64,000 nucleotides of DNA from an uncultured Victivallales bacterium (GCA_964607765.1 CAZSNT010000010.1:27049-91048), one strand, 5' to 3'. Shown: positions 1 through 59,251, counted from the first letter of the stretch. The notes: generated by a model not told the origin, from the letters alone. Numbers and translations are program-made.

Positions 1-2903
1 AACTGGTAGACATTGCCGAGACCGCGCTGCGCCGCCTTGCGCGCCGGTTCCGCGGCGATCTTCGCGGCTTCGGCGTGGTCCTGAGCAAAGACGAGCGTGC
101 CGTCGCCCAAGTGGTAGCGCGGCGTCTTCCAGCCCCGGCCGTAGTGGATCCGACAGCCGTACACTGCTCTGTCGTCAGCAGCGAGCTGCTGCGTACGCAA
201 CGGCGAGTAGCGCCCGTTCCACTCGGTGGTGAAGCGGCGGAAGGTCCGCTTGTTCTCAGCGGTGTCGAGGAAGCCCGAGCTGGCCATCATGCGCGGCTTG
301 GCCGAGTGGTTCGTCTCATCGATCGGGTACTGGGAGGACAGGCGCTCGAGCTGTTTGCTGAACTTGATGTGACGCATGTAGATGTGGGTACCGTCGCTGA
401 CGAGGATATCGTTCAGCGCACCAGCCGTATTGAAGGTCTCACGGCCCGACGTTTCCTGCTTGCGCGGCGTGGTTACGTTGCACTGGTGCCTCACCTCACC
501 GGTAGCCAGGTCGAGAGCGTAGACCGTGATGCCGCCGTCCAGATGTCCGGACCGTCCGGCAGCAGTGTAAACAAGGCCGTCCTGAACGAGCACGGAGCCG
601 TGGCACGGCCAGAGCGATTCGAGTTGTCCGAAGGCAACGGTCTGCATGTCCGCCGGTGCGGCGCGGAAGCGCCAGCAAAGGGCGCCGTCGGCAAGTCTCA
701 GTGCGTACACACGTCCGTCAGCGGCGCCGAAGACGGCCATGCCCAGGGCGAGCGTAGGCGGGCTGTCAATCCTGCCGTCGGCCATGAACGACCACAGAGG
801 CTTGCCGTTGTCGGCCTCGAGACAGTATACCGTCCGCGCGTCCGTTTCGGCCACGACCAGTTTGCCTGCCGCCAGTACCGGCGGAGTCACGCGTGAGGGG
901 AACGTTCGCATCCAGGCGGGAGCCAGCTCGCCGTCGGGCTCTGCGCGGCTGACGCTCCGCCGCTCCGGATCGCCTCTGAACGTGGGCCAATCAGACTGGG
1001 TGGGGAGGAGCGAGTGCGAGGGACGAGTGCGGGGGGGCGGTGTGGAAGACAAGGGCGAGGCGTAGGCCGGGCCTTTCTCCAGGCGATTGCCAGGGGCGGA
1101 CCGCGGCAGTTTGACTACCCTCGGGTTGTAGGCGACCATACCGCGCAGGATGGCTTCCACGTAGCAATTGCAGCCGTGCGGCGGCGTGTAGATCAGACCG
1201 TTGGTCGGGACAATGCCCAGCCGGCAGGTGCCACGCAGCCAATCGTGTTTCGTGCCGGCCTCTGCGCCACCTTCCCAGCTGAGGAACTCGATCCCGCGTT
1301 TGTTGAACATGGCAAACCGGTCGGTGGCCTTCGCCGGATAGCAGCGAACGTGGTGGCCGGGCGTCTGTGTGCCTTTCATGCTGATCTGTGTCTTCAGCTC
1401 ACCCGTCTTGAGATCGAGACCGACCGTGCTGCCCTTCGCCGTGAGCCAGACCCGCCCCTGAGCCAGCAGCACTTCCGGGGCGATGTAGAAGCAGTGCGTG
1501 AATGTGGGCAGCGACTGTCCGGACGCCTCCCAGAGCTTGCTGCCGTCTTTGGCCGAAAGCCCGCGTACAACGATGTTCGGGCGGCGCGTCTTCTTGTCTC
1601 GCGGCGCCTCGACACATGCCACCAACACGCCGTCCCGGAACATGAGCTTGGTGGCCTTGACCGGGACCTGCCACTGCTCCGCTCCCGTGCCCAGATCCAG
1701 AGCACGCAGGCCTTTGTCCTCCGCGACGTACACGCTCGCGCCGTCGGAACAGAAGGTCAGAGGCACGAACACGCTCGGCGTAGACCAAAGCTCCGTGCCG
1801 CCGACCGTTTCGTAGGCCGCGATAGTCTTGCCACGGCGCCGGTGCGCTTTGATGCCTGCCCTGCCCAACGGTTGCTCACGGGTGGTCGGGTACTCCCTGA
1901 CCTTCCCCGAGGCGGGGTCCATCAAGCCGACGATCAGGGCGCGGCCGGTCTTGATGAGCTCCGCTGCGCCCTTCGTCCCGGCAAACCGAGTGAGTTCCTT
2001 CCCTGTCGCGGCATCGAGGGCGACCACCTGTCCGTTCAGCCCATCGGTCACGTAAAGGCGGTCGGTGCCGGCGACCATGGCCCGGTGCAGGTATTCAGGG
2101 ATCGTGCCCCACCACTGGTGGCTCGGCGTCCAGTTGGGAATGGGCCGCCGCCAGAGCATGACGCCATTGTAAGCGTTGCGTGCGTAGACGGCATGACGCG
2201 AAGGCAGCCGTCTGTCGACCACCCCGATCGGGCCTTCGTCCAGGATGTAGAACAGCCGGCCGCCGGCCGTGACCATGCCGGACACGCTCGGGGTCGTGTC
2301 ATGGTCTCGCGTCCACCAGGGCCCGGCGACCCACTGCAATCCGGTTGGGTAACCGACAGTGGTATCGCTTGAGACAGGCACGTTGTCCGGGGCGTGCAGG
2401 AAGTGGCTCCAGTCATCGAGTCCGGCGGGGATCGGATTTCGCGTAACGTTCCACGTCCCATTGGGTTGGCGCACACAGAGTGCGCCGCCCGGCGTCAGGA
2501 CCCGGAGCGCTTCGTCAGTAGACGGCGCCGTTCCGTCTGTCGCCACGAGCAAGTCGACAACACCGTCTGCATACGGAAGTGCCGCGCTGCGCCAACCCCG
2601 CACCGAAGCCGTCCCCGCCAGGCCTGCCGCCTGGATCTGAGCTCGAACAGCCCCAAGCTCCTCGGCGCCATCAACCAACCCTTGCGCGAGCACGCCGGGG
2701 CGTGTGGCGAGGGCGCGGACCAGGGACGCATCGTCACAGCCCACGTGGACCACCAGGCCGTTCTGGAAGCCTGTTGCCTTCGCCATGCCGGCCAGTAACG
2801 CAGCGGCGTCCGTGTCGGCGCGTAACGTGTCCGGGCCCCATGCCACGATAAAAACAGCCAGCACGGGGACGACAAACCAAGACCGCTGATGCGTTGCCGT
2901 CAT
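1..2903 (-). CDS. Secreted PQQ-binding-like (BamB-family) double beta-propeller protein with N-terminal class I SAM-methyltransferase-like domain; 3'-partial (runs off window start)
   Basis: Absent from the ORF track (no stop codon in window). Hand translation from ATG at 2903: MTATHQRSWFVVPVLAVFIVAWG...GLVVHVGCDDA...LPYADGVVDLLV...EALRVLTPGG...DDWSHFLHAPDN...HHVRCYPAKAT...WLRGTCRLG...PPHGCNCY...AGRSGHLDGG. Frame checked at 2903, 1377 and 3. Clear paralog of 15605..19450 and 37017..40211. Confidence 0.88.
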   Translation of the reverse strand, partial: MTATHQRSWFVVPVLAVFIVAWGPDTLRADTDAAALLAGMAKATGFQNGLVVHVGCDDASLVRALATRPGVLAQGLVDGAEELGAVRAQIQAAGLAGTASVRGWRSAALPYADGVVDLLVATDGTAPSTDEALRVLTPGGALCVRQPNGTWNVTRNPIPAGLDDWSHFLHAPDNVPVSSDTTVGYPTGLQWVAGPWWTRDHDTTPSVSGMVTAGGRLFYILDEGPIGVVDRRLPSRHAVYARNAYNGVMLWRRPIPNWTPSHQWWGTIPEYLHRAMVAGTDRLYVTDGLNGQVVALDAATGKELTRFAGTKGAAELIKTGRALIVGLMDPASGKVREYPTTREQPLGRAGIKAHRRRGKTIAAYETVGGTELWSTPSVFVPLTFCSDGASVYVAEDKGLRALDLGTGAEQWQVPVKATKLMFRDGVLVACVEAPRDKKTRRPNIVVRGLSAKDGSKLWEASGQSLPTFTHCFYIAPEVLLAQGRVWLTAKGSTVGLDLKTGELKTQISMKGTQTPGHHVRCYPAKATDRFAMFNKRGIEFLSWEGGAEAGTKHDWLRGTCRLGIVPTNGLIYTPPHGCNCYVEAILRGMVAYNPRVVKLPRSAPGNRLEKGPAYASPLSSTPPPRTRPSHSLLPTQSDWPTFRGDPERRSVSRAEPDGELAPAWMRTFPSRVTPPVLAAGKLVVAETDARTVYCLEADNGKPLWSFMADGRIDSPPTLALGMAVFGAADGRVYALRLADGALCWRFRAAPADMQTVAFGQLESLWPCHGSVLVQDGLVYTAAGRSGHLDGGITVYALDLATGEVRHQCNVTTPRKQETSGRETFNTAGALNDILVSDGTHIYMRHIKFSKQLERLSSQYPIDETNHSAKPRMMASSGFLDTAENKRTFRRFTTEWNGRYSPLRTQQLAADDRAVYGCRIHYGRGWKTPRYHLGDGTLVFAQDHAEAAKIAAEPARKAAQRGLGNVYQ

Positions 2904-2942
2904 GTGATTCCCCAAATGTCACCTGATCCGGATTCGCTGACC

Positions 2943-3569
2943 CTACATGCCCATGCCGTCCATGCCCTCCATGCCGTCCATGCCCTCCATGCCCTCCATG
3001 CCCTCCATGCCGCCCATGCCGCCTTTCTTGAACTCGCCTTTCCAGAGCAGCTCACCGGTGGCCTTGTCCCACTTGCGTCTGCGATCGATCGTGTAGTGGG
3101 TATCGTGGCAGTCGGTACAGGTTCGGGTGCCGGGCGGGAACTTGCAGGTGTCGCCGAGGCGTGTGGGATAATGACAGCGTTGGCAGCAGGCGTTCACCTG
3201 CTCCTTTGTGAACATCACATCCGGAGGCTGGATCGCGTCTTCGTCTTCAGAATGCTCCATGGATGGGCCGTGGCAGGCCTGGCACCCCCAACCGGCGAGT
3301 TCATGCTTGCGCGCGATGTCCTCGTACCCGAAATCGAGGTGACAGACCAGGCAGTAGCTGTTGTCTACAGCGGGGCGCGGCATGAACCCGAGGTCGCGGT
3401 GCGGGTCGATCATGCAGAGCGTGACGACCACGACGACGCTGGCAAGGCACAACGCCCATCCGAGCCAGCCGCCGGGTGCGACGTCCTGGGGGGGAGCGTC
3501 GGCACTGGAACTGTCCGAACCTGAGTGTGGATCTGCAGCGTGGTCGTGGACAACTGCGGACTCAGACAT
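2943..3569 (-). CDS. Membrane-anchored tetraheme c-type cytochrome (cytochrome c3-like) with Met-rich C-terminal tail
   Basis: Four CxxCH motifs (CLVCH, CQACH, CQRCH, CTDCH), one N-terminal hydrophobic helix (WLGWALCLASVVVVVTLCMI), and a C-terminal (GME/GMD)n tail. Start overlaps the stop of the upstream gene. Confidence 0.85.
   Translation of the reverse strand: MSESAVVHDHAADPHSGSDSSSADAPPQDVAPGGWLGWALCLASVVVVVTLCMIDPHRDLGFMPRPAVDNSYCLVCHLDFGYEDIARKHELAGWGCQACHGPSMEHSEDEDAIQPPDVMFTKEQVNACCQRCHYPTRLGDTCKFPPGTRTCTDCHDTHYTIDRRRKWDKATGELLWKGEFKKGGMGGMEGMEGMEGMDGMEGMDGMGM
2946..3023. repeat. 9-bp coding tandem repeat (CCATGCC[C/G]T)n encoding Gly-Met-Glu/Asp
   Basis: catgccgtc/catgccctc units are visible directly; the minus strand reads GGMGGMEGMEGMEGMDGMEGMDGMGM. 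Confidence 0.9.
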
Positions 3570-4644
3570 ACTCCCAGTCCCTCAACCACTGGTACTGGGG
3601 CGGGAGATTCGCCCACATCTGCTCGGAGGCATTGTCGAGCTCGATCTGCTCAACCTGGGCCAGTCCGCGGTGTTCCTTGATCGCCTGGACCATGTTGTCG
3701 ACCTGCTCGATGGTGTAGAGGCCGGGGATCGGGGCAGTGATGGCTGGATTGCCGAGGATGTAACGGATCGTCAGGCGGGCGAGCTTCGCACACTCCTGGG
3801 CACGCTCTTTCTCGTCCTTGATGCGCACGCCTCTGAACAGAGAACCGCCTCCGAACGGCTTGATGCCAAACGTGCCCACGTCATGCTTGCGCACGGTGTC
3901 GAACAGGCTGTCTTTGGGCGCTTCCTTGGAGCGCGCGGTGTAGGGGAACAGCACGACCTGGAAGGTATCGGGATAGGTTTCGCAAAGCCGTTTCAGCCAC
4001 GGCCGGCCGTGCGATGAGACACCCGTGAACCGGACCTTGCCCTGTTTCTTCGCGGTCTCGAGCGCTTTGACGAACTCCAGCTCCTCGGCTTCGGTGTGTT
4101 TGCCCGGCGTGCTTGCGACCGGGCGCCACACGTCGACATAATCGAGCTTCGCTCTCTGCATGCCGTCGTCAAGCGTCTTCAGCAGGACCTCGGCGGTACG
4201 GTACTTCGCGTTGCGCGGACACTTGGGCCACATGGCGAAGTTCAGAAACACCTTGTCGCGCATCCCGCCCTGCAGCGCGTGCCCGTAGTGGATGACCTCG
4301 CCTTCAGTACACGCGTCGATGTGATTGATACCGGCCTCGATGCACCGGTTCACGACTTCACGCCGATTCTCCACGATCTCGGGATCGGAACCAGTGTCCG
4401 GGTTCGCGATCCCCTTCTGCATCGGCCCAATCCGGTAGTGACCGCCAAGGCAGACCGCGGAGACCCAAAGCCCCGTCTTGCCGAGCCGGCGATACTCCAT
4501 CTCCGGGTTGTAGCTGCGTGTTTCCTTGACGGCGCTGTCATCCTCGGCAGCGGCCAGGAAGTTGCCGGGCAGGCCCGTAGCTACACAGCCGGCAGCAACA
4601 GCCCCCGTGCGGATGAAGTCACGTCTGGTGAACTCGTTAGGCAT
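3562..4644 (-). CDS. Tat-exported aldo/keto reductase-fold protein
   Basis: Start re-called at MPNEFTRRDFIRTG (twin-arginine motif, GGGAGA RBS). AKR signatures MEYRRLGKTGLWVSAVCLG, KKQGKVRFTGVSSH, GIKPFGGG, TAPIPG. Confidence 0.85.
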   Translation of the reverse strand: MPNEFTRRDFIRTGAVAAGCVATGLPGNFLAAAEDDSAVKETRSYNPEMEYRRLGKTGLWVSAVCLGGHYRIGPMQKGIANPDTGSDPEIVENRREVVNRCIEAGINHIDACTEGEVIHYGHALQGGMRDKVFLNFAMWPKCPRNAKYRTAEVLLKTLDDGMQRAKLDYVDVWRPVASTPGKHTEAEELEFVKALETAKKQGKVRFTGVSSHGRPWLKRLCETYPDTFQVVLFPYTARSKEAPKDSLFDTVRKHDVGTFGIKPFGGGSLFRGVRIKDEKERAQECAKLARLTIRYILGNPAITAPIPGLYTIEQVDNMVQAIKEHRGLAQVEQIELDNASEQMWANLPPQYQWLRDWEYV

Positions 4645-4658
4645 AGCACTTCTCCCTG

Positions 4659-5564
4659 TCATTCTGCGCTCGCTGCCGAATGGCACGCGAGAAGGTAATC
4701 GCGGGACTTCTCCAGGGCCGCGCTCATTGCGTCGGGCCCGGGTTCGTGATGCATGAACGGATTGACGTAGTGTGCGTAGTCGATCTTGGCCAAAGCGCTG
4801 AGCCAAGGCTTGAAATCTGCGGGCCCATGTCCCGGCAGCTGCCCCACGCCTTTGTGGCGTTGCCAGGCGTAGAAGAAGAAGAGCTGTTTGCCGGCGATTC
4901 GAATGGCCTCGGGCACGGACGCCTTTGCGCCCTGCAGATGGTACGGCGCCAAAGCAATCCCGAGGTGCTTGCTCGTGTTGATGTCAACGAACGCTTTGAA
5001 CGAGTCAAGCGTGTGCAGCAGAGCGTTGCCGTGGTTCTCGATGGCCAGGTATGAGTTGTGCTTCTCCGCCAGCTCGACCTGGGGCTTGAGGCCCTCGATG
5101 AACTTGGTCATGCGGGCGGTCAGGTCGCCCGGCTTGACGGCGCCGCCCTGGCTGCCGCGTACAGCGATGCCGCCGCCGCAGTCGCCCAACAGTTGCGCGT
5201 AGCGTGGATACCCGCCGCGGTAGACACTGAACGCATTCAGCGTCAGCTTGTGTTCCGCCAGCACATTCATGAACGCTTCCGCGCCCAGGCGGTTGGCCAC
5301 TTCATCCAAGTGCTTGCACTTCCTGCCAAAGGGGCACCATACGTCAACGCCCTCAAAGCCGAGGGCAGCGATGCGGGAACAGGCTTCCTCGACAGCGAGA
5401 CTGCCGAACTGCACCGTCGACGTCGAGAGACGCATCGACCATGTCCCCTCCGCCGCCTGGCCTTCACCGCGACAGACAACAGGGAATGCGGCTGTTGCGA
5501 GGCCGGCTGCAGCACCGGCCAGAAAACGGCGGCGCGGCGGCTGGAACGAGTCAGGCGCGATCAT
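4659..5564 (-). CDS. Tat-exported sugar-phosphate isomerase/epimerase (xylose isomerase-like TIM barrel)
   Basis: PRRRFL Tat motif; GFEGVDVW, LAIENHG and PGHGPADF motifs of the AP_endonuc_2/IolE-like family. Confidence 0.8.
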   Translation of the reverse strand: MIAPDSFQPPRRRFLAGAAAGLATAAFPVVCRGEGQAAEGTWSMRLSTSTVQFGSLAVEEACSRIAALGFEGVDVWCPFGRKCKHLDEVANRLGAEAFMNVLAEHKLTLNAFSVYRGGYPRYAQLLGDCGGGIAVRGSQGGAVKPGDLTARMTKFIEGLKPQVELAEKHNSYLAIENHGNALLHTLDSFKAFVDINTSKHLGIALAPYHLQGAKASVPEAIRIAGKQLFFFYAWQRHKGVGQLPGHGPADFKPWLSALAKIDYAHYVNPFMHHEPGPDAMSAALEKSRDYLLACHSAASAE

Positions 5565-12608: not shown

Positions 12609-12622
12609 TGGAACCACCAAAC

Positions 12623-12718
12623 GGCGCGTATCGGGCCGGTCAGGGACGACCGGATCTCCAGCGCGTTGGACCAGATGGCGCGTATCGGGCCGGTCAGGGA
12701 CTATCGGATCTCCAGCGC
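12623..12718. repeat. Two ~42-bp REP-like direct repeats (period 54 bp)
   Basis: GGCGCGTATCGGGCCGGTCAGGGAC(GAC/TAT)CGGATCTCCAGCGC at 12623 and 12677; the first copy has an internal hairpin CCGGTC...GACCGG. Confidence 0.85.
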
Positions 12719-14011: not shown

Positions 14012-14099
14012 GAGCGGGAACGCCGGATAAGCGGCGAGCGCGAGTGGGCCAAGCCGCCTCGGCCACACGCAGGAAGGGCAACGCGGGTCGTGTTGCGGG

Positions 14100-14217
14100 A
14101 CCAATCTCGCTCACCCACGGCACGAGGCCGTGGGGGTCGTTTTTGCCCCTCCTCTTGACCAATCTCGCTCACCCACGGCACGAGGCCGTGGGGGTCGTTT
14201 TTGCCCCTCCTCTTGAC
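14100..14217. repeat. Perfect 58-bp tandem duplication containing a REP-like hairpin
   Basis: ACCAATCTCGCTCACCCACGGCACGAGGCCGTGGGGGTCGTTTTTGCCCCTCCTCTTG x2; stem CCCACGGC-N5-GCCGTGGG. Confidence 0.92.
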
Positions 14218-43300: not shown

Positions 43301-44062
43301 CTCATCGGCGAGTACGGCTCGCTCACGCCTAACGAGGAGGACGCCTACCGGCAGCTGGTCTACATGCAGGAGCGAGGCGTCAATTTCCTCCACGTCATGT
43401 GGTGGCCCCGGTCCCACGACAGAGGCTACAACAAGGCTCAGATCTCCGCACTGAAGCGATTCAGCGCGGAGAACGATGTGCCAAGACCGGGGCTGGCGGG
43501 CGGCATCAGGCAGATCAGGCCGTACAGACGGGAGGGCGCGGCCTATGATATTGCTTCGCTCGGGACCGGCCCCGAGCACACGGGCCTGCTCAAGTCCCTC
43601 AGAGCCGACGGCAAGTGGGAAGGCACAGTCTACACGGTACCGTTCCATGCCCACGTTGACGTTGCACGGCTCGCGAGTCGCGAGTCGGCGCGCATCACCA
43701 ATGCCGCGACGGATCTGTGCAATGTCACAGGCGTCTACTCGGGCATGCAGCTGGAGATTGTCTTCACCGGCACGGCCCCCGCTGCAACGTCTCTCACGGT
43801 CAAAGTACACCATGCCGGCCGGCACCTTCCGGAGCAGGATATGGTCGTTGCGGTGGGGCCGGCACAGCGGCACTACCGCCTGATCAAGAAGTTCTCCATG
43901 CCCGTTTCCGAGCTGAACTTCAAGCTCGAGGCGGACCGGAGCGACGTCGTGCTTACCGGACTGAAGGCCCTGCTGCACCGCGAGCAAACCGTGCGCCTGA
44001 AGCGGAGCGTCTTCACCGGGCAACGCCACCGAGGCGGCGTGATGTTCGATGTATTGGAGTAG
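40349..44062 (+). CDS. Large lipoprotein with N-terminal beta-sandwich/CBM-like modules and a C-terminal GH42-like glycoside hydrolase domain
   Basis: Start re-called at MNLTKHAV with lipobox LACSC. EPNHENE, GDYN...FYKYLLVMYGNLDGINAAFAT (GH42-like 'Y..l..lNaaw.t' motif) and LIGEYG. Confidence 0.7.
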   Translation: MNLTKHAVPALALALMLACSCQSRRIALDEATLSGMPIMLSTSHGHDVEVTREGEDVYHVRTLGTDPYIHAVFLDEAIDTHTQHVIAFEYTADRDPGHFQVFYGPPISARAQAVTDMPAAAEWTPFRIDLKKTGKNFRGPLALFRFDFGNQAAVNLRVRNVRLLGPAPGRKALVPGPSERLVTVEEDAVVIDFADEFKTAKSANSLSTRLTEALRIGDIDGKGIFQHSPRDVSSGNASLTFADVVMPTISVDEKLILSYYKGLNVDHTTKDQADGVAFVLGIDGTEVHRSVKQTKEWERARCDLSDFAGRTVTVSLEMDGLGNSNYDQATWGHPRIVVDGRKLEKQRIEKVFGIKLSDVVPASPAATNVHESGDRAVTLVSSFYKHLDLDAMTREAATDPSAAPLVPYGPRLVAGEGPHPDNHTIIRILARHQLPVVQFLAFPETVRGGVGVECGRFGAAAELCIVAYPLADNTRAVRVFDEHGGLLHEIKVADAVTPPFSVSVGNVLADHAGDEIAVTPAEQDSREVTVLIYAPDGALLQSASCIRRTSGKTSLRLSCNPGGAHDALVLCEGTLAQAVELPPQTACDLPLSELAPGSRVFPSAFEDRTFNVVRDSKVESWVETIGPAGRSRINAGTEENIFWYYLQKSHAGDKADWEELPDGEYVRNGRYNFLGMVACWSDVLKVGKLEGHSYADWTEGRFAQAMQKRLAEYDQGRPKTWSPTVSHRWGLQAMWPTMNIRDRTYGLPKYMLLDRDNETIRSGHFGHVSFSYGSYNFELPGLRDLYTYCQREFLKRLAPLHRKDPEYLLAVEPNHENEIVSGEGGSVSIGDYNTSALAGFYKYLLVMYGNLDGINAAFATPFTDAFFDAPRHKGRGPWDTYDVANPYFAKWLEYNTTLVHRRVGNTFREALLAGFPPEAIKCHQIPDSYVFGFEIGFSAKTRRITPIDWMLNAGTGFGFTRYGTWYKKRHNCTQGSHSSGFDSVLIGEYGSLTPNEEDAYRQLVYMQERGVNFLHVMWWPRSHDRGYNKAQISALKRFSAENDVPRPGLAGGIRQIRPYRREGAAYDIASLGTGPEHTGLLKSLRADGKWEGTVYTVPFHAHVDVARLASRESARITNAATDLCNVTGVYSGMQLEIVFTGTAPAATSLTVKVHHAGRHLPEQDMVVAVGPAQRHYRLIKKFSMPVSELNFKLEADRSDVVLTGLKALLHREQTVRLKRSVFTGQRHRGGVMFDVLE

Positions 44063-44094
44063 TGTGCAGTCGGTGGTGAGTTGAGGTGTCAGGT

Positions 44095-44182
44095 GGCGTT
44101 AGGCGTTAGGCGTTAGGCGTTAGGCGCTAGGCGTTAGGCGTTAGGCGTTAGGCGTTAGGCGTTAGGCGTTAGGCGTTAGGCG
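44095..44182. repeat. Heptamer microsatellite (GGCGTTA)12
   Basis: 12 full units (one GGCGCTA variant) plus GGCG; intergenic. Confidence 0.95.
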
Positions 44183-44183
44183 G

Positions 44184-44277
44184 TACTTCGTCTTTCTACT
44201 TCATCTTTCTACTTCGTCTCTCCGTGACGCACCCGAAACGGACGAAGAGGGAAGACGAGGCAGAAAGACAAGGGAAG
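44184..44277. repeat. Inverted pair of 13-mer tandem arrays
   Basis: TACTTC[G/A]TCTTTC x3 (44184-44221) followed about 19 nt later by degenerate reverse-complement copies GACGAAGAGGGAA/GACGAGGCAGAAA/GACAAGGGAAG. Confidence 0.75.
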
Positions 44278-44375
44278 GTAGCGGGAGTGTCAACTCCCAG
44301 CCAGGACTTGGCCGTCTGACGCTTCACGCGTACCTGAAGTGCGGTTGTGACCAGCGGAATCGATATGGAGTCAGC

Positions 44376-51481: not shown

Positions 51482-53361
51482 CGCGCTCGCGACCCGACAG
51501 TCCGGTCGCCCTTCGGTGGCACGTGTATGTGGCCTTGGGCATCGCCACCGCCGCGATGGTGTGCACGGTGGGCTACTCTCTGCACATGGGCGACCGCGCG
51601 CTGCGCGTGTACGCGCCGTTGATGAACGCGGCCATGGGGATCAAGCTGGAAGCAGCCATCGCCCATCTCTGGTTCGAGGAAATACTCAGTGGGGATCGCC
51701 ATGAGAGCATCGAGGACGTGTGGCAGCACTTGGACCAAGCGGCTTGGTACGCGGATGCGATGCTGGAGGGCGGCGCGAATGAGAAGGGCACGTTCATCGC
51801 GCTTGGCGATCCGGAACTCCGGCGTGAAGTCGAGGGCGTGCGCACCAAGATTGCCCGGTTTCGGACGGTCGCCGAACAGCGCTACGCTTCTCGCGATCGG
51901 GCCAAGGCCGGGACCGGTATCGACCAACGCTTTGACGCCGTGTTCCACGACTTTATGGCTCAGGCTGACGGAGTGGCGCGCGCACTCCGACGACTGATGC
52001 AGGTGCAGAGGCGGAGCTTCCTGGCTATCCAGGCGGGCCTTGGCGTCGCCTACGTCGCGCTGAGCGTGCTTGCCGTCGGCGTGTTGCGCCGCCAGGGCCG
52101 GAGACGCAGGCTGTATTCGCAGGAACTGGGCCGGAACGAGAAGCGTTTGCGGAGCGTCGTGGAGAGCATGCCGGTGATGCTGGACGCCTTCGACGAGAAA
52201 GGGATCCTGCTGACGTGGAACGGGGAGTGCGAACGCGTGACCGGGTATGCGGAAGGCGAATTGGTGGGCAACCCCCGGGCGATGGAGATACTGTATCCCG
52301 ACCCTGACTATCGAGAGAAGATGGTCAAGGCGTGGGCGGAGCGGGGCGACAGTTACCGCGACTGGGAGTGGAACATCACGTGCAAGGACGGCAGCGTCAG
52401 GACCATCGCGTGGTCCAATATTTCTGATGTATTCCCGATCCCCGGTTGGGCAAGCTGGGGAGTCGGTCTGGATGTGACGGGCAGGAAGCGCACGGAGCAG
52501 GAGCTTCGTGACGCACGTGGGGAACTTGGGCAGCGCGTCCGCGAGCGTACGACCGAGCTGCGGGAACGCATCCAGGAGTCTGAGCAGCTGAACCGTGCGA
52601 TGGTGAACCTGCTGGAGGACCACCAGGAGAGCAACCGCAGGCTCAAGGAGGCCAAAGCCGCTCTCGAGTCTGCCAATCGGGAGCTCGAGACCTTCAGCTA
52701 TTCGGTCTCCCACGACCTGCGTGCGCCGCTGCGGGCCGTCGACGGCTTCAGCAAGGCGCTGATGGAGGACTGCGCAGACCGACTGGATAGCGAGGGGCTT
52801 GATTATCTGCAGTGCCTGCGTGAGGCGAGCCAGAACATGGGCCGGCTGATCGACGATTTGCTCGCGCTGTCTCGCGTGGCGCGCGACCCGATGCGCAAGG
52901 AACAGATCGATTTGAGGGAGATTGCCGAGGATGTGGTGTCCGAACTGCGCGAGGACGATCCGGAACGGAACGTCGCGTTCGCCGTGTCCGACGGCCTCTC
53001 GGCGGAGGGGGATCCCGGCCTGATGCGCGTCGTGCTGATGAACCTCCTGGGCAATGCGTGGAAATTCACCCGCGGAACGGAGTCGCCGCAGGTCGAGTTC
53101 GGCGTCACCGGGGAAGGCAACCAGCCCGTGTATCACGTTCGCGACAATGGCGCCGGCTTCGACATGGCTCACGCCAACAAGCTCTTCGGACCGTTCCAGC
53201 GCCTGCATGCGGTCCATGAGTTCGAGGGCTCCGGCATAGGGCTCGCCACCGTGCAGCGCATCGTTCACCGTCACGGCGGGCGCGTGTGGGCCGAGGGCGC
53301 CCCAGGCGAAGGCGCGACGTTCTACTTCACGCTGGCACCGGAGCAGGAGAAAAGCCCATGA
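51478..53361 (+). CDS. Membrane PAS sensor histidine kinase (Cph1/BphP-type HisKA core)
   Basis: Two TM helices, PAS, H-box FSYSVSHDLRAPL, N-box NLLGNAWKF, DNGAGF, F-box LFGPFQRLH and G2 GSGIGLA; ATGA overlap. Confidence 0.95.
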   Translation: MTRSRPDSPVALRWHVYVALGIATAAMVCTVGYSLHMGDRALRVYAPLMNAAMGIKLEAAIAHLWFEEILSGDRHESIEDVWQHLDQAAWYADAMLEGGANEKGTFIALGDPELRREVEGVRTKIARFRTVAEQRYASRDRAKAGTGIDQRFDAVFHDFMAQADGVARALRRLMQVQRRSFLAIQAGLGVAYVALSVLAVGVLRRQGRRRRLYSQELGRNEKRLRSVVESMPVMLDAFDEKGILLTWNGECERVTGYAEGELVGNPRAMEILYPDPDYREKMVKAWAERGDSYRDWEWNITCKDGSVRTIAWSNISDVFPIPGWASWGVGLDVTGRKRTEQELRDARGELGQRVRERTTELRERIQESEQLNRAMVNLLEDHQESNRRLKEAKAALESANRELETFSYSVSHDLRAPLRAVDGFSKALMEDCADRLDSEGLDYLQCLREASQNMGRLIDDLLALSRVARDPMRKEQIDLREIAEDVVSELREDDPERNVAFAVSDGLSAEGDPGLMRVVLMNLLGNAWKFTRGTESPQVEFGVTGEGNQPVYHVRDNGAGFDMAHANKLFGPFQRLHAVHEFEGSGIGLATVQRIVHRHGGRVWAEGAPGEGATFYFTLAPEQEKSP

Positions 53362-53777
53362 AGCGGCGAGCGATCCTTCTGGTTGAAGACAACCCTCACG
53401 ACGTCAAACTCACGCAACGGGCCTTCGGCAAGTGCAACCTGGCCAACGAGATCGCCGTTGCCCGTGACGGACAGGAGGCCCTCGACCTCCTCCATGGGGA
53501 CACGACACGCCCTCTGCCGGCGGTCGTCCTGCTGGACCTGAAGCTGCCGAAAGTGGACGGAATCGAGGTGCTCCAACGGATTCGGGCCAGCGAACGGACG
53601 CAGGCGCTGCCGGTGGTGATCCTGACATCGTCCAAGGAACAGGAGGATGTGGCCGCCAGCTACCGGCACGGCGCAAACAGCTACATCCGCAAGCCGGTGG
53701 ACTTCGATCGATTCGTTGAGGCCGTCGCACAACTTGGGCTCTACTGGCTCGTGCTGAACGAACCGCCGCCGGCATGA
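53358..53777 (+). CDS. Single-domain response regulator (Rcp1-like)
   Basis: Start re-called at MKRRAILLVEDN (ATGA overlap). LLDLKLP (phospho-Asp), LTSS, YIRKP and the C-terminal LYWL..NEPPP typical of Rcp1/CpdR-like partners of this kinase class. Confidence 0.93.
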   Translation: MKRRAILLVEDNPHDVKLTQRAFGKCNLANEIAVARDGQEALDLLHGDTTRPLPAVVLLDLKLPKVDGIEVLQRIRASERTQALPVVILTSSKEQEDVAASYRHGANSYIRKPVDFDRFVEAVAQLGLYWLVLNEPPPA

Positions 53778-53782
53778 TCTTC

Positions 53783-53824
53783 GATTGCGGATTGCGGATT
53801 GCGGATTGCGGATTGCGGATTGCG
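53783..53824. repeat. Heptamer array (GATTGCG)6, left flank of the four-helix-bundle gene
   Basis: Six perfect copies. Confidence 0.95.
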
Positions 53825-53835
53825 CGGAGAGGGAA

Positions 53836-54188
53836 ATGATACCTGAAGCGATGAAGAAGCGGACGAAGCAGTTCGCGCTGCGAGTCATTCGACTGTGTGA
53901 GGCCCTGCCCGAGCCCCCTGTTGCGCGTGTCATCCGTAGTCAGCTTCTGCGTTGTGGTACCAGTGTCGGGCCAACTACCGCGCTGCGTGCAGGGCCAAGT
54001 CGACGGCAGACTTCATCAGCAAGATGGGAACGGTCGAGGAAGAAGCCGACGAGTCCATGTACTGGATGGAGATGATCATCGACGCCGGCCTGATAGCACA
54101 GGAGCTCGTCCGCGATCTGCACCTGGAAGCGGACGAGATCCTCTCCATGATCGTTGCCTCGATCAACACGGCAAAGCACAACAGGTGA
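53836..54188 (+). pseudogene. Four-helix-bundle protein (23S rRNA IVP / Avd-like family), frameshifted
   Basis: MIPEAMKKRTKQFALRVIRLC...QLLRCGTSVG in one frame continues as ANYRAACRAKSTADFISKMGTVEEEADESMYW... in another. One G is missing at GTC-GGG-CC-AAC (53968-53970) relative to the family consensus QLLRSGTSVGANY. Confidence 0.88.
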
Positions 54189-54192
54189 GCGC

Positions 54193-56064
54193 ATGTCCGG
54201 CAATCCCAAATCCGCAACCCGCAATCCCCAATCCCTCCGCGTTCTGCTTGTCGAGGACAGCGAGCACGACGCGAAGCTGCTGGTGCGTGAACTGAAGTCC
54301 GGCGGCTTCGGTGTCGCATGGGAGCGCGTCGACAGCGAAACGACGATGCGCGCGACTTTCGAGTCGTCATCGTGGGATCTGATCGTCTGCGACTACAACG
54401 TGCCCGGCTTCGGAGCACTGCCCGCTTTGGCGCTCTGCGGAGAGTTGGGGCTGCATACGCCTTTCATCGTCGTGTCCGGCGCCGTTGGTGAGGCAGCGGC
54501 CGTCGAGTGCATGCGCCGCGGCGCGCATGATTTCCTCATGAAGGACCGCCTTGTCCGGCTGTGCGAAGCCGTGCGCCGCGAGCTTCGCGAGGCCGAGACG
54601 CGCCGCCGCAGGCGGGAGGCCGAAGACGCACTCCAGGAGAGCACACGGCGCCTTGCCACACTCATGGCCAACCTGCCCGGAATGGCTTACCGCTGCGCCA
54701 ACACGCGCGACTGGCCAATGGACTTTGTGAGCGAGGGATGCCTGGCGCTCACGGGGTATCGTGCGAATGAGCTCATGGGCCGCGATCGGCGTCTCTACGG
54801 CGACCTAATTCACCCGGATGACCGACAGATGGTCTGGGACTGTGTCCAGGATGCCGTATCACGGGGCGGACGTTTCGTCGTCGAGTACCGACTGATAGAC
54901 AAGAAGGAGCAGACACGGTGGGTCTGGGAACAAGGACAGGCCGTTGGCACGGACCGTGACAGGGCCCTGATCCTGGAGGGATTCATCACTGACATCACAG
55001 ATCGCAAGAGAGCTGAACAGCAGCTTCAGGACGCGCTCGCGGAACTCCGTTCAGTACACGATAGGGTGAGCGCGGAGAATGTGCTCTTGCGCGAGAAACT
55101 GCGCATGGGAGACCGCCACGGCGACATCGTGGCTCGAAGCGATGCCATGAAGACCGTCCTCGTCCAGGCCGAACAAGTCGCGGAAACAGACTCCACGGTG
55201 CTGATTCTCGGCGAGACGGGAACGGGTAAGGAACTCCTGGCCCGGGCAATTCACGACATGAGCACGCGACGCGACAAGCCGCTCATTACCGTCAACTGCG
55301 CCACAATCCCCGCCGCCTTGGTGGAGAGCGAGCTGTTCGGTAGAGAGAAAGGCGCTTACACCGGGGCGGTGAGTCGACAGATCGGTCGTTTCGAGGCCGC
55401 TGACACAGGAACGCTGTTCCTGGACGAAGTCGGCGAACTGCCCTTGGAGACTCAACCCAAGCTCCTGCGCGTGCTGCAGGAGGGGCGGTTTGAACGTCTG
55501 GGAAGCACCGACTCCGTCAAGGTCGATGTCCGAGTAGTCACTGCAACCAACCGGAATGTGGAGAGGGATGTCCGGGAGGGCCGCTTCAGGGAGGACCTGT
55601 TCTTCCGGCTCAACGTCTTCCCGATCACCATCCCGCCACTGCGGGAACGCGCTGACGATGTCGAGCCGCTCGTGTGGAAATTCGTACGCGAGTTCGCCAC
55701 GAGAATGGGCAAGCCCGTCGAGGCAGTCTCGCAAGCCGATATGGCCCGGCTGCGAGCGCACCCCTGGCCGGGCAACGTCCGCGAACTGCGCAACGTGGTC
55801 GAGCGAGCCATGATTGCCGCGCAAGGTCCGACACTGGGGATACGGCCCCCCCGACCAGCCGGTCACGCGGCAGGTGCATACCGCGGTCTCACTCTGGACG
55901 ATGTCCAGCGACGACACATCCTCACCGTTCTCAAGCAGACGCGGTGGCGGGTCCGCGGCGACGCGGGCGCCGCTCAGATCCTCGGCCTCAAGCCCACCAC
56001 CCTCGAATCGCGGATGCAGAAACTGGGCATCCGCCGCCACTCCACGCCCTCCGATATATCGTAG
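54193..56064 (+). CDS. Sigma-54-dependent enhancer-binding protein (REC-PAS-AAA+-HTH, FhlA-like C-terminus)
   Basis: REC (VEDSEHD, VCDY), PAS, Walker A GETGTGKE, ESELFG.EKGAYTGA, LFLDEVGE, FREDLFFRLNVFPI, WPGNVREL and HTH AAQILGLKPTTL. Confidence 0.94.
   Translation: MSGNPKSATRNPQSLRVLLVEDSEHDAKLLVRELKSGGFGVAWERVDSETTMRATFESSSWDLIVCDYNVPGFGALPALALCGELGLHTPFIVVSGAVGEAAAVECMRRGAHDFLMKDRLVRLCEAVRRELREAETRRRRREAEDALQESTRRLATLMANLPGMAYRCANTRDWPMDFVSEGCLALTGYRANELMGRDRRLYGDLIHPDDRQMVWDCVQDAVSRGGRFVVEYRLIDKKEQTRWVWEQGQAVGTDRDRALILEGFITDITDRKRAEQQLQDALAELRSVHDRVSAENVLLREKLRMGDRHGDIVARSDAMKTVLVQAEQVAETDSTVLILGETGTGKELLARAIHDMSTRRDKPLITVNCATIPAALVESELFGREKGAYTGAVSRQIGRFEAADTGTLFLDEVGELPLETQPKLLRVLQEGRFERLGSTDSVKVDVRVVTATNRNVERDVREGRFREDLFFRLNVFPITIPPLRERADDVEPLVWKFVREFATRMGKPVEAVSQADMARLRAHPWPGNVRELRNVVERAMIAAQGPTLGIRPPRPAGHAAGAYRGLTLDDVQRRHILTVLKQTRWRVRGDAGAAQILGLKPTTLESRMQKLGIRRHSTPSDIS
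54199..54233. repeat. Degenerate heptamer array (CGCAATC)5, inverted relative to 53783-53824
   Basis: GGCAATC CCAAATC CGCAACC CGCAATC CCCAATC; lies inside the 5' end of the downstream regulator gene. Confidence 0.85.
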
Positions 56065-56284: not shown

Positions 56285-59251
56285 ATGCCTGATCAACTGC
56301 CCCCTGCCATGCCACAGCCGATCCGTGTCTTGATCGTCGAGGACAGCGAGCACGACGCCAGACTACTCGTCCGTGAGCTGACGAAAGGTGGTTTCAAAGT
56401 CGCATGGACACGCGTCGCTTCGGAGGAGCAGATGCGGTCGTCGCTCGAGTCGTCGGAGTGGGACCTTGTCATCAGCGACTACAGCATCCCCGGCTTTGGC
56501 GGCATGGAAGCCCTGTCGCTTCACCAGCAGTTGCGGCTGGACATTCCCTTCATTGTCGTGTCCGGCACGGTGGGCGAGGATGTGGCGGTCGGATGCATGC
56601 GTGAGGGCGCCCATGACTACCTCATGAAAGACCAGCTGACACGACTGTGCGAAGCGGTCCGGCGCGAGCTCCGCGAAGCCGACATGCGCCGTACACACCG
56701 CGAGGCCTCCACTGCGTTGGCACGTAGCGAGGAGCGCCTGGGCCTCGTGTGGGAGAACGTGGAAGCGGGCATCATCCTCGTCGATGCGGCTACGCGCGAC
56801 GTTATCGACATCAACCCGGTTGCCGCAGCGATGATCGGCAGTCCCCGGGGCGATATCGTCGGGCGGCAGTGCCACGAGTTCATCTGCCCCGCGGAACGGT
56901 GCAAGTGCCCCGTCCTCGACCTGGGCCAAACTGTGGACCGCTCCGAGCGGCAACTCGTACGGGTCGACGGCTCGTCGCTCCCCGTCGTGAAGTCGGTCAC
57001 GCCGATTGAGCTGGACGGTCGGCAGGTCCTGCTGGAGAGCTTCGTGGACATTGCCAAGCTTCGGGAAGCGCAGAAAGCGCTGCGCGTAACGCAGTTTGTC
57101 ACCGACCATGCCGTGGAAGCGGTCTACTGGATGGGCCCCGACGCACAGTTTCTGTACGTGAACGACACGGCCTGTCGGTGTCTGGGCTACTCGCGGGACG
57201 AACTGCTGACCATGACGGTGCACGACATTGACCCCAACTTCCCGAAAGAGGCATGGCAACAGCACTGGGCAGAGCTCAGGGAGAAGGGCAGCATGGTGGT
57301 CGAGTCGGTCCACCGCGCGAAGGACGGTCGTGAGTTCCCGGTCGAGATCTCGCTCAGCTACCAGGTTTCCGAAGGCGAGGCGCGCAACTGCGCTTTTGCC
57401 CGCGACATCACCGAGCGCAGGCAGGCCGAGGCACGGCGCGCGCTGGAGGCGCGAGTACTGGAGACGCTCAACGGTTCCAACGGCTGGCAGAACCTGCTGC
57501 GTGACCTGCTGGCCGGCATCAAGGAGTTCACCGAGTTCGATGCGGTTGGCCTGCGATTGCGTGACGCGGATGATTATCCCTACTACGAGTACAACGGGTT
57601 CTCTGAAGATTTCGTGATCGGCGAGCGCTACCTGTGCGCCCGGGACGATGCCGGAGAGATCGTTCGTGATGCCTCCGGGGATCCCTGCCTGGAGTGCATG
57701 TGCGGCAACGTGATCAGAGGCCGGACCGACGCGACGCTGCCCTGTTTCACCGATGCAGGCAGTTTCTGGACGAACAGCACCTCTGCGCTGTTGGGTGAAG
57801 GCAACACCCTGAACTGTCAGGGACGGATGCGCAATGAGTGCAGTGCCGCAGGATACGAGTCAGTGACCCTCATTCCCCTCCGTTCCGGGGACGAGACGAT
57901 TGGCCTGTTACAGCTCAATGACCGGCGCCCCGACCGCTTCACTCCGGACCTCATCCGATTCTTCGAGGAGATTGGCCACAGCATCGGCATCGCCTGCACG
58001 CGACGCGCCATGCATGAGGCGCTGGAGGAGAGCGAGCGACGCCTGACCACGCTGTTGGGCAACCTGCCAGGCATGGCCTACCGCTGTCTGAACGAGCCAG
58101 ATCGCCCGATGGAATTCGTCAGCGGGGGCGGGATGGCCCTGACCGGGTACACGCCCGACGAGCTGACCGACACAGAGCACCCGGCTTATGGCGAACTGAT
58201 CCATCCGGAGGACCGTCAACGGGTGTGGGATACCGTCCAGGATGCACTGAGCCAAGGACAGACCTTTGCCGTTGAGTATCGCCTCTCCGACCGGCAGGGA
58301 GCGGAGCGCTGGGCCTGGGAGCAAGGCCAGGCGGTCGGTGAGGACAGCGACGGCACGGTCGTCATGGAGGGAGTCATCCATGACATCACCGAACGCAAGC
58401 GGGCTGAAGAGCATCGGCGGACTGCGGAGGCCCAGCTCCGGCAGTCGCAGCGGCTCGAGTCCATCGGCACACTGGCAGGCGGCGTTGCGCACGAGATCAA
58501 CAACCCGATCAATGGCATCATGAACTACGCACAGCTGATCCGGGATGAACTTGGGCAAGAGCCGGGCGAGTTGGGCGAGTTCGCCTGTGAGATCGTCCAT
58601 GAGACGGAGCGCGTCGCAGCCATCGTGAAAAGCCTGCTTCAGTTCGCGCGGCACGACAAGCGATCGCACAGTCCTGCACGGGTCTGTGACATCGTGGAAG
58701 GCACCTCGTCGCTGATCCGCACTGTCATGCGTCACGACCAGATTACGTTGAGCATTGATGTCCCGGACAGCCTGCCTGAGATCCGCTGTCGCAGCCAGCA
58801 GATCCAACAAGTCGTGATGAACCTCCTCACCAACGCCAGAGATGCCCTGAACGACAAGTACGAGGGGTATGACGAGAACAAAGTCATCGAGGTGAAGGCA
58901 CTGCTGCTGGCGCAAGGACGTCCGAAGCGCTTTCCATGCCGCCGCCTCGCCCCAGACGCGAAGGCGAGTGACGTCAGGGAATCCCCTCCTGCGTTGCGCT
59001 CCGGGGACGCTGTCCCGCCGATGATTCGCATCACCGTTGCGGACCGCGGCACAGGCATTCCGGACCGTGTTCGTGAGCGCATGTTCGACCCCTTTTTCAC
59101 GACAAAGGCACGGGACAAGGGCACGGGGCTGGGCCTGGCCATCAGCCACGGCATCGTCAAAGACCATGGCGGCGACATGAGCGTAGAGAGCAAGCCCGGC
59201 GAATACACACGCTTCCACGTGGACCTGCCCGCAGCACAACCGTCGTCCTGA
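56285..59251 (+). CDS. Hybrid cytoplasmic histidine kinase REC-PAS-PAS-GAF-PAS-HisKA-HATPase (NtrB-type core)
   Basis: REC (VISDY), PAS domains, Cys-rich GAF, H-box GVAHEINNP, NLLTNARDA, DRGTGI and FDPFFTTK...GTGLGL. Start could be 56309. Confidence 0.93.
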   Translation: MPDQLPPAMPQPIRVLIVEDSEHDARLLVRELTKGGFKVAWTRVASEEQMRSSLESSEWDLVISDYSIPGFGGMEALSLHQQLRLDIPFIVVSGTVGEDVAVGCMREGAHDYLMKDQLTRLCEAVRRELREADMRRTHREASTALARSEERLGLVWENVEAGIILVDAATRDVIDINPVAAAMIGSPRGDIVGRQCHEFICPAERCKCPVLDLGQTVDRSERQLVRVDGSSLPVVKSVTPIELDGRQVLLESFVDIAKLREAQKALRVTQFVTDHAVEAVYWMGPDAQFLYVNDTACRCLGYSRDELLTMTVHDIDPNFPKEAWQQHWAELREKGSMVVESVHRAKDGREFPVEISLSYQVSEGEARNCAFARDITERRQAEARRALEARVLETLNGSNGWQNLLRDLLAGIKEFTEFDAVGLRLRDADDYPYYEYNGFSEDFVIGERYLCARDDAGEIVRDASGDPCLECMCGNVIRGRTDATLPCFTDAGSFWTNSTSALLGEGNTLNCQGRMRNECSAAGYESVTLIPLRSGDETIGLLQLNDRRPDRFTPDLIRFFEEIGHSIGIACTRRAMHEALEESERRLTTLLGNLPGMAYRCLNEPDRPMEFVSGGGMALTGYTPDELTDTEHPAYGELIHPEDRQRVWDTVQDALSQGQTFAVEYRLSDRQGAERWAWEQGQAVGEDSDGTVVMEGVIHDITERKRAEEHRRTAEAQLRQSQRLESIGTLAGGVAHEINNPINGIMNYAQLIRDELGQEPGELGEFACEIVHETERVAAIVKSLLQFARHDKRSHSPARVCDIVEGTSSLIRTVMRHDQITLSIDVPDSLPEIRCRSQQIQQVVMNLLTNARDALNDKYEGYDENKVIEVKALLLAQGRPKRFPCRRLAPDAKASDVRESPPALRSGDAVPPMIRITVADRGTGIPDRVRERMFDPFFTTKARDKGTGLGLAISHGIVKDHGGDMSVESKPGEYTRFHVDLPAAQPSS

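Follow-up and report, generated by a model that had tools for sequence, protein, structure and literature searches.

In REP/REPIN-RAYT systems, a single gene is flanked by an inverted short repeat that also occurs in many gene-less hairpin copies, and repeat family and protein clade go together. To our knowledge, no function has been assigned to the IVP/S23p family since its discovery in rRNA intervening sequences about 30 years ago, and the over-representation of heptanucleotide repeats in bacteria has no explanation either. In the 23S rRNA of Coxiella burnetii and Leptospira, intervening sequences (IVSs) that bear an open reading frame (ORF) carry a gene of this same family in the loop of an inverted-repeat stem of ~28 bp (PMC4990558). 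Such IVSs are regarded as selfish, horizontally acquired and often decaying, and the 28-bp terminal stem of the Coxiella IVS is cut by RNase III (PMC4990558). Here we analysed a window of 64,000 nt (the whole stretch under study, to which all coordinates refer unless another sequence is named) from an uncultured Victivallales bacterium, in which an IVP/S23p gene stands between two inverted arrays of a 7-nt repeat. The assembly, hereafter this genome, comprises 10.6 Mb in 406 contigs with 63.6% G+C and is rated 93.7% complete. We think it rather probable that this locus is a decaying copy of a horizontally mobile arm-gene-arm cassette whose arms are recognised by the encoded protein, in the manner of REP and RAYT.

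The cassette lies on the plus strand in a series of genes of one operon direction, in the order kinase, regulator, cassette, activator and hybrid kinase. The response-regulator gene (53358-53777, + strand, coordinates read off the sequence; REC domain only, PF00072 with 82.2 bits) has an ATG that overlaps the stop codon of the upstream histidine-kinase gene and its own stop codon at 53775-53777, 5 nt ahead of the left arm. This arm is a perfect (GATTGCG)6 array at 53783-53824 (+ strand; Tandem Repeats Finder (TRF): period 7, 6.0 copies, 100% match, score 84). The ATG of the IVP gene (53836) follows 11 nt past the array, behind GGAGAGGG at 53826-53833 (+ strand), which on reading the sequence is the likely ribosome-binding site. 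The right arm at 54201-54235 consists of five degenerate units that are GATTGCG-like on the minus strand; TRF assigns it period 7, 5.0 copies, 78% match and the consensus CAATCCC, the reverse complement of the left-array unit. Beyond the IVP gene, and including the right arm, extends the gene of a sigma-54 activator (54193-56064, + strand; REC-PAS-AAA+-HTH) with matches to PF00158 (238.6 bits), PF00072, PF08447 and PF02954. TRF and the profile search therefore confirmed what the initial annotation had described, a (GATTGCG)6 array, a four-helix-bundle gene of ~117 codons and a degenerate inverted array between the response regulator and the sigma-54 activator.

To compare the arms with other sequences, an arm score was defined by aligning locally the 350 nt that precede a gene with the reverse complement of the 350 nt that follow it and taking the best alignment. 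The score is 26 at the locus, from an alignment with 35 Watson-Crick columns, three transversions and one transition, while among 600 random intervals taken from this genome the highest score was 16.5 and the 99th percentile 13.5. Because the score exceeds that of random intervals here and the arms recur at the loci of relatives compared with controls (see below), the arm-gene-arm arrangement is a discrete cassette and not a chance neighbourhood. As already noted in the initial annotation, no transposase ORF is visible at the cassette, and its outer edges (TCTTC on the left, TCCGC on the right) bear no direct repeat and so no target duplication. No reverse transcriptase domain, as would be expected of a diversity-generating retroelement (DGR), was found among the large ORFs within ~4 kb on either side (sensor protein, kinases, response regulator and activator). 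A promoter and terminator scan of 53200-54500 returned no promoter-like site and one terminator-like site on the other strand, no more than in shuffled sequences.

The IVP gene is split between two frames. TIGR02436 (cut-off 24 bits) is matched with 25.7 bits in frame A (53836-54072) and with 52.2 bits in frame B (53952-54185), so that positions 2-109 of the domain are covered across the two frames by pieces that both exceed the cut-off, which places the gene in the family. PF05635 scores 18 and 33.6 bits at positions 7-43 and 44-105, each piece lying below the cut-off of 33.8 since the gene is split. IVP is the sole family matched by the cassette gene, which has no match to HUH Y1 transposases. 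The 5' part comprises codons 1-45 in frame A (53836-53970, + strand; TIGR02436 positions 2-39, PF05635 positions 7-43 and the alignment with paralogs), and the 3' part runs in frame B to a TGA at 54186-54188 (53970-54188, + strand; TIGR02436 positions 40-109). In an alignment with intact paralogs (A1), the two pieces abut with one residue missing between GTSV and ANYRAA, which corresponds to the loss of a single G in the run at 53968-53970. Thus, the ~117 codons of the initial annotation hold as the restored length, but the gene is not an intact ORF of ~115-125 residues, a one-base deletion having made it a pseudogene. Contigs from two samples of one study (runs X1 and X2), one of which may be the source of the window, span the break without difference, and we read the gene as a real and recent pseudogene. 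A programmed frameshift was also considered; the break, GUC GGG followed by CC, shows no recognised slippery heptamer and was read as a deletion instead. A 68% identical relative matches PDB entry 2RLD (E 4.9e-20), an entry with five chains.

Relatives of the window protein were collected in a scan with the C-terminal 72 residues, one genome being taken per species (set 1). The resulting 80 loci, from at least 14 labelled phyla, encode proteins 53-68% identical to frame B. Arms scoring at least 16.5 were present at 45 of the 77 scorable loci, compared with 2 of 142 controls, which were intervals shifted by 1.1 kb within these loci. An array was found within 300 nt at 78 of the 80 loci; the best one had period 7 at 67 loci and period 14 at five, and 172 of the 206 control windows had no array. 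Homologs therefore generally carry flanking arrays, a point on which the initial annotation had made its reading of the locus depend. The unit is shared along with the position: 83 of the 115 period-7 arms of set 1 are within one mismatch of GATTGCG, as are 1.1% of random heptamers, none is near CGAACAT, and a single one has the opposite orientation. In the consensus of the upstream unit, positions 1, 2, 4, 6 and 7 are constant at 78-94% (G in 59/64, A in 60/64, T in 59/64, C in 57/64 and G in 50/64, respectively), and positions 3 (T, A or G) and 5 (G or T) vary.

Other clades have units of their own. A second single-domain clade (set 3) was matched in 116 of the 301 genomes taken from the window's phylum, this genome included, and 29 of its loci were examined. 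All arms detected there have period 7, with units of the CGAACAT, CGAACGC or CCAACAT type; 16 of 40 arms are within one mismatch of CGAACAT and none is near GATTGCG. Genes of the GxxExxY family, which matched in 102 of 201 genomes, have arms at 17 of the 28 scorable loci (of 29) outside this genome, compared with 0 of 54 controls, and their units are of the CACRGAG type with a period of 8-10 and ~3 copies.

Repeat unit length scales with domain number: units of 6-7 nt accompany single-domain proteins, and units of 12-14 nt accompany proteins with two fused domains. Four IVP genes of this genome encode two fused four-helix-bundle domains in one chain, and these have 12-14-nt units, while the single-domain genes have 7- or 9-nt units. 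An alignment of the four fused proteins was used for a metagenome scan that gave 80 loci, of which 75 were scored and four encoding proteins of intermediate length were set aside (set 2). For the 36 two-domain proteins (at least 200 residues), the best period was 12 in 18 cases, 11, 13 or 14 in seven, 25-38 in four and 6 in three, with no array in four. For the 35 one-domain proteins (at most 160 residues), it was 6 in 27 cases and 13 in one, with no array in seven. The median self-match of the arms at lag 6 was 0.84 for one-domain and 0.37 for two-domain proteins, and at lag 12 it was 0.76 for the latter. Median copy numbers of 4.4-5.4 for 6- and 7-mers and 2.7 for 12-14-mers give an arm of ~27-38 nt throughout. 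In Xanthomonas campestris, the four-helix bundles of the S23p protein Xcc0516 form a homopentameric toroid (PMC4990558), and a coherent reading would be that one unit serves one domain and roughly one arm serves one oligomer. In the 70 nt ahead of the gene start at L172, L176, L196, L198, L201 and other hexamer-clade loci of set 2, the upstream array also reads as a short Leu-rich ORF, such as MLLLILMIEL, whose TGA overlaps the IVP ATG (ATGA); this could be a coupled leader peptide or a by-product of the 6-nt period.

In this genome, 8 of the 10 IVP genes or remnants have an arm score of at least 16.5, each with its own unit of 7, 9, 12, 13 or 14 nt. The remaining two are an intact, armless gene (C131) and a truncated one (C164). 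No reverse transcriptase was found near the armless C131 paralog, and a DGR link was rejected. At C164:8795-9073, the truncated gene has lost its last helix and stop codon, and its frame continues into the signal peptide of an ORF of 813 residues. Decayed or truncated copies of IVP genes are present at the window locus, C164 and C35.

The arrays were also surveyed independently of the genes. Among 1528 tandem arrays with a TRF score of at least 36, 79 inverted pairs were formed within 2.5 kb, 54 of which have a loop of at most 150 nt and are gene-less. Eleven pairs have a loop of 350-1200 nt, and nine of these (seven cassettes) enclose IVP genes, one a GxxExxY gene and one a Uma2 gene. Similar arrays on C35 (1367-nt loop) and C125 (2332-nt loop) contain no recognisable small cargo and were treated as separate arrays. 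In the same genome, GxxExxY genes (4/5) and 'four-helix-bundle suffix' genes (4/5) score far over the random 99th percentile as well. Proteins of TIGR04258, which combine a four-helix bundle, a 'suffix' domain and a zinc ribbon, are flanked by inverted periodic arms (4/5 score at least 15) at C14:60088-60837 (10-mer arms), C37, C148, C242 and C10:95200-95900, all of them beyond the window. Around C42:2800-6500 (L036), there is a small-gene island with 9-mer arrays (AAATCTGCG) that encodes DUF2442, Uma2, GxxExxY, an MntA-like nucleotidyltransferase and a HepT-like protein, and a second GxxExxY gene lies between CACGGAGG and CTCCGTGC arrays at C42:52132-52846 (L037).

Gene-less copies, whose existence had been supposed in the initial annotation, do occur in this genome, both as inverted pairs and as a repeated element. 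The GATTGCG unit family comprises 25 arrays, most of them inside a palindromic element of ~160 nt. This element is present in 18 copies that are 86-100% identical, with outer inverted flanks, inner GATTGCA/GAATGCA arms and a small central hairpin; one example is at C64:1510-1721, and a copy of 212 nt has a predicted folding energy of -100 kcal/mol. Another family, with 13-mer units, comprises 19 inverted pairs, of which 17 are gene-less hairpins within a larger conserved palindrome and two bracket a two-domain IVP gene on C167. The hairpins (for example C78:40671-40749) have arms of AGATTAGGGCGAA in 2.7 copies inside a palindrome that starts with caatgtcgttgaattaagg and ends with cttaattcaatgacattg, and the palindrome is bordered by GTGTTCA-type heptamers, forming nested repeat shells. 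Nested arms were also seen at C8:19827-20774, where outer CGAACGY arrays of up to 26 units surround inner AATGGGG/CCCCATT arrays next to a 13-mer hairpin. Overall, period 7 accounts for 136 of 361 perfect arrays and for 406 TRF arrays in this genome.

The solo and empty arrays of the window itself had been taken for footprints of this cassette. These arrays are real, but their unit families belong to other IVP clades. One gap, 44063-44375, after a gene ending at 44062, holds two of them: a solo (GGCGTTA)12.6 array at 44095-44182 (+ strand; TRF), and a gene-less degenerate 13-mer hairpin at 44184 to ~44290 (no strand assigned) with TACTTCGTCTTTC in 2.8 copies, a 17-nt loop and a GACGAAG-rich arm, its pairing being read by eye. 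The reverse complement of the former, CTAACGC, resembles the CGAACGC type, a family other than GATTGCG; the unit family of the latter is that of a two-domain IVP cassette on C97. Among other repeats of the window are a 9-nt (or 18-nt) tandem array at 2951-3020 (CCATGCCCT in 7.8 copies) and tandem duplications of 58 nt (perfect, 2.1 copies, 14099-14217) and 54 nt (1.9 copies, 91% match, 12616-12718).

On the protein tree of the window's clade, phylum changes at least 32 times (68 labelled rows). Members of the clade were found on 32 plasmid records, mostly cyanobacterial, while only 2 of 50,697 phage records contained a relative, 31-33% identical, and phages were rejected as carriers on this count. 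The gene of Gloeocapsa sp. PCC 7428 (WP_015211461.1) has GATTTTA/TAAAATC arms of 2.5-3 units apiece, and its neighbours on either side are exactly a DUF1156 gene and a Swt1-HEPN gene. On plasmid p1 of Planktothrix agardhii PCC 7805 (L263, 1237-2030; WP_235752341.1), the gene lies between DISARM drmD and BREX pglX, and the cassette there has a complete hairpin on each side, with GATTTAC and CCCCAAT units. We take the latter to be of the cyanobacterial STRR type. A published survey also noted IVP genes wedged in cas operons (PMC3936711). The mobility is episodic, because some relatives have long resided at one site, between a gap-like gene and pgk.

At the window locus, the cassette has become part of the neighbouring gene. 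The ATG of the activator (54193) lies 4 nt after the IVP stop codon (54186-54188), and AGGTGA at 54183-54188, which overlaps this stop codon, can serve as its ribosome-binding site, so that on the sequence both the ribosome-binding site and the start codon (54183-54195, + strand) fall within the 3' end of the cassette. The DNA from this start codon through the right array codes for activator residues 1-14 (MSGNPKSATRNPQS), the right arm itself for residues 3-14. There is no alternative in-frame start ahead of the REC strand LRVLLVED except TTG at 54154. A REC paralog at 56285 (64% identity over 149 residues) aligns only from activator residue 12 (paralog residue 10) onwards, so that ~11 N-terminal residues of the activator are new; 'PQ' may be ancestral. 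The claim that the right array encodes an activator N-terminus missing from this paralog is thus borne out by the sequence and by the paralog comparison. By its insertion, the cassette either took the place of the activator gene's 5' end or lengthened it, with the 3' end of the cassette and the right arm giving the start codon and the first 11-14 codons. The drift of the right arm (78% match, compared with 100% in the left arm) is presumably due to coding demands. No ortholog of the activator was found among 41 genomes including this one (one of the same family, the rest of the same order), and the best outside match is 53% over residues 171-616.

These features would be accounted for if the mobile unit were a small IVP/S23p gene that brings along its own ribosome-binding site and is enclosed by two ~5-unit arrays pointing to the gene. 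The encoded protein may recognise its own arms, unit by unit, in keeping with the toroidal pentamers formed by family members with solved structures, and the arms may also persist and multiply as gene-less hairpins in the way of REP/REPIN and RAYT. At the window locus, the cassette would have landed between regulator and activator, after which the IVP gene would have lost one base and the right arm would have drifted into the activator's start and first 11-14 residues. Recognition of the units by the protein is favoured because the unit sequence is conserved, its orientation is fixed towards the gene and its length scales with domain number, and binding of the protein to its own repeat is the leading hypothesis because of the covariation between proteins and repeats. 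Such covariation, proposed as a check in the initial annotation, was evident between clades but weak within the clade of the window. On the protein tree of the two-domain clade, the unit-core class changes six times, compared with a mean of 15.8 in 500 shuffles, none of which reached six; the classes were defined after the arms had been seen, and kin share labels in this comparison. In the window's clade, after removal of 6 of the 80 proteins because of their odd length, the whole unit showed 43 changes, compared with a shuffle mean of 49, and none of 300 shuffles was as low.

Beside the shared labels, several observations weigh against a mobile cassette read by its own protein. At the finer level, the covariation of the window's clade is weak, since position 3 was matched by 8 and position 5 by 19 of 300 shuffles. 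Clade-specific units could also reflect co-inheritance of arms and gene together with selection by a host factor. Among the relatives, 32 of 77 score below 16.5, and C131, the best-scoring family member of this genome, lacks flanking arms. In the assembly, the window's clade is represented by the broken gene alone, in the presence of 18 near-identical gene-less elements of its unit family, so their spread may not need the protein. Unrelated folds (GxxExxY, Uma2) are likewise found between periodic arms, which could be a general landing site instead of belonging to the four-helix bundle as its partner. The domain contrast comes essentially from one fused clade and may go back to a single evolutionary event. 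Finally, copy numbers cluster at 4-5.4 and published Xanthomonas arrays have mostly four units, making for a loose match to a pentamer.

The best-surviving alternative, in our judgement an unlikely one, is an RNA element like an IVS, in which the arms only pair, RNase III releases the gene loop and the protein does not read the arms. In the predicted RNA fold of 53770-54250, the two arrays, 42 and 35 nt long, do pair together as a terminal inverted-repeat stem around the ORF (minimum free energy -199.2 kcal/mol, z -3.44, a value equalled by 0 of 100 shuffles). Moreover, the arm length of 27-38 nt is close to the 28-bp stem of the Coxiella IVS (PMC4990558), the gene family is that of the IVS ORFs, and cassette and host operon have the same orientation. 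However, constancy of five of the seven unit positions at 78-94% over at least 14 phyla goes beyond the need for pairing, and unit length follows domain number. Pairing in the sense strand only should favour G:U among transition mismatches, yet no wobble excess was seen on this strand at 45 loci of relatives (48 sense vs 46 antisense, with 86 transversions) or in this genome (27 vs 66), leaving the RNA stem without support from this side. In addition, 16 of the 25 hexamer-clade loci with full flanks have the upstream array alone. The initial annotation had inferred that the inverted arrays pair in RNA or single-stranded DNA to loop out the gene; the predicted pairing stands and may yet play a part, but with no wobble bias and with the upstream array alone constant in one clade, a looping-out function is not established. 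Candidate joints of a DNA-level excision, from 53814 or 53821 to 54210, were seen in runs X2-X4 with a shorter side of only 25 letters and were not counted, because in metagenomes such joints usually come from other loci with the same repeat. In four marine metagenome runs (X1-X4; seawater/marine contigs), the word depth of (GATTGCG)n was 800-4700, compared with 3-8 for the flanks, and there were many differing loose ends, suggesting that this array is common at many other loci in those communities.

It is also improbable, in our view, that the protein is a domesticated, non-selfish regulator, a ring-shaped repeat binder that represses its own translation via the upstream array and acts in trans on genes with orphan arrays. 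The upstream array is the most constant feature of the cassettes and ends near the start codon, at a distance of 11 nt in the window, the same as the median of 11 nt in the hexamer clade, and of 16.5-30 nt in heptamer clades. There are many orphan arrays (25 in the GATTGCG family, 406 with period 7 overall), numerous genes of the hexamer clade sit stably between a gap-like gene and pgk, and the TAACTGA heptamers upstream of Beggiatoaceae genes have been proposed to be regulatory (PMC4679880). A regulator of this kind would, however, hardly be so patchy across phyla, with unrelated neighbours from site to site and frequent decayed copies, and the family is also found inside rRNA IVSs (PMC4990558). 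Most orphan arrays of the GATTGCG family, moreover, are in the 18-copy palindrome and not at defined promoter or start-codon positions.

That ordinary, slippage-prone heptamer microsatellites merely happen to lie beside a small gene is very improbable: period-7 arrays are common here and heptanucleotides are over-represented simple repeats in bacteria (PMC4692102), but this is already contradicted by the association statistics in this genome and three independent locus sets and by the same unit in the same orientation beside the same protein clade in at least 14 phyla.

A mobile cassette whose arms are read by its protein thus remains our preferred reading, and a broader proposal can be attached to it more tentatively. 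IVP/S23p proteins may be modular, sequence-specific readers of tandem repeats, with one domain per 6-7-nt unit and one toroid per ~5-unit arm, and may be the partners of bacterial heptamer repeats (STRR, GGGAATC, GCAATCT) in an interphylum partnership of the REPIN/RAYT kind, with GxxExxY as a parallel system; we consider this possible, though doubtful as a whole. Linking repeat family to protein clade and repeat length to domain number merges the questions of IVP function and of the heptamers into one hypothesis that can be tested at the bench, namely that the protein binds its own repeat with one unit per domain. If true, it would define a new class of repeat-reading protein and a widespread selfish cassette at operon junctions, in defence islands and in rRNA. 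Cassettes of this type can donate translation starts and N-termini to host genes, as at this locus, and for annotation, many odd low-complexity N- or C-terminal extensions and 'hypothetical' peptides would be explained as translated repeats.

Compared with known systems, the window element is no insertion sequence or miniature inverted-repeat transposable element, having neither a transposase ORF nor a direct repeat at its outer edges. With the ORF-bearing IVSs it shares the protein family and the inverted-repeat stem. Unlike them, it is not inserted in helix 9, 25 or 45 of 23S rRNA and sits between protein genes of an operon, its neighbours being a response regulator and a sigma-54 activator. 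Its arms, moreover, are tandem arrays of clade-specific units, and units of this kind, 6-14 nt long, are not described for rRNA IVSs in the accessible part of PMC4990558.

Avd, the accessory protein of DGRs, is related: its four-helix bundles form a positively charged pentameric barrel, and it binds a defined RNA element (bioRxiv 10.1101/2023.10.23.563531). Unlike Avd, the window gene and the C131 paralog have neither a reverse transcriptase nor a template/variable repeat pair beside them, and Avd is not described with flanking periodic arrays. In TRAP, the trp RNA-binding attenuation protein, each subunit of a homo-oligomeric ring binds one short tandem repeat. This likeness is an analogy only, as TRAP has an unrelated fold, 11 subunits and triplet RNA repeats and is a host regulator rather than a mobile cassette.

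The arms themselves resemble the bacterial heptamer repeats (GGGAATC in Xanthomonas, GGGGA(C/T)T in Nostoc/Anabaena, cyanobacterial STRR and TAACTGA in Beggiatoaceae), which are 7-nt tandem repeats, mostly intergenic, typically of ~4 units and often in convergent inverted pairs; 70-75 convergent pairs are given for the Xanthomonas arrays (PMC4692102). The window arrays likewise are tandem 7-nt repeats of few copies in a gap between genes and form a convergent pair. The texts on these heptamers propose G-quadruplexes or regulation (PMC4692102, PMC4679880) and contain no mention of IVP, S23 or four-helix-bundle genes, whereas the window arrays are tied to a gene family. In the main texts of openly available articles, no literature was found that links IVP/S23p or four-helix-bundle genes to flanking tandem arrays.

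The closest likeness in organisation is to REP/REPIN and RAYT, since a flanking inverted repeat is combined with dispersed gene-less copies, in the case of the GATTGCG family with 25 arrays and 18 palindromic copies, and in other clades likewise. Unlike RAYT, the protein is a four-helix bundle of ~118 residues without a known catalytic motif and not an HUH Y1 transposase. Unlike REP, the repeat is a tandem array with a period that scales with domain number, and the cassettes cross phyla.

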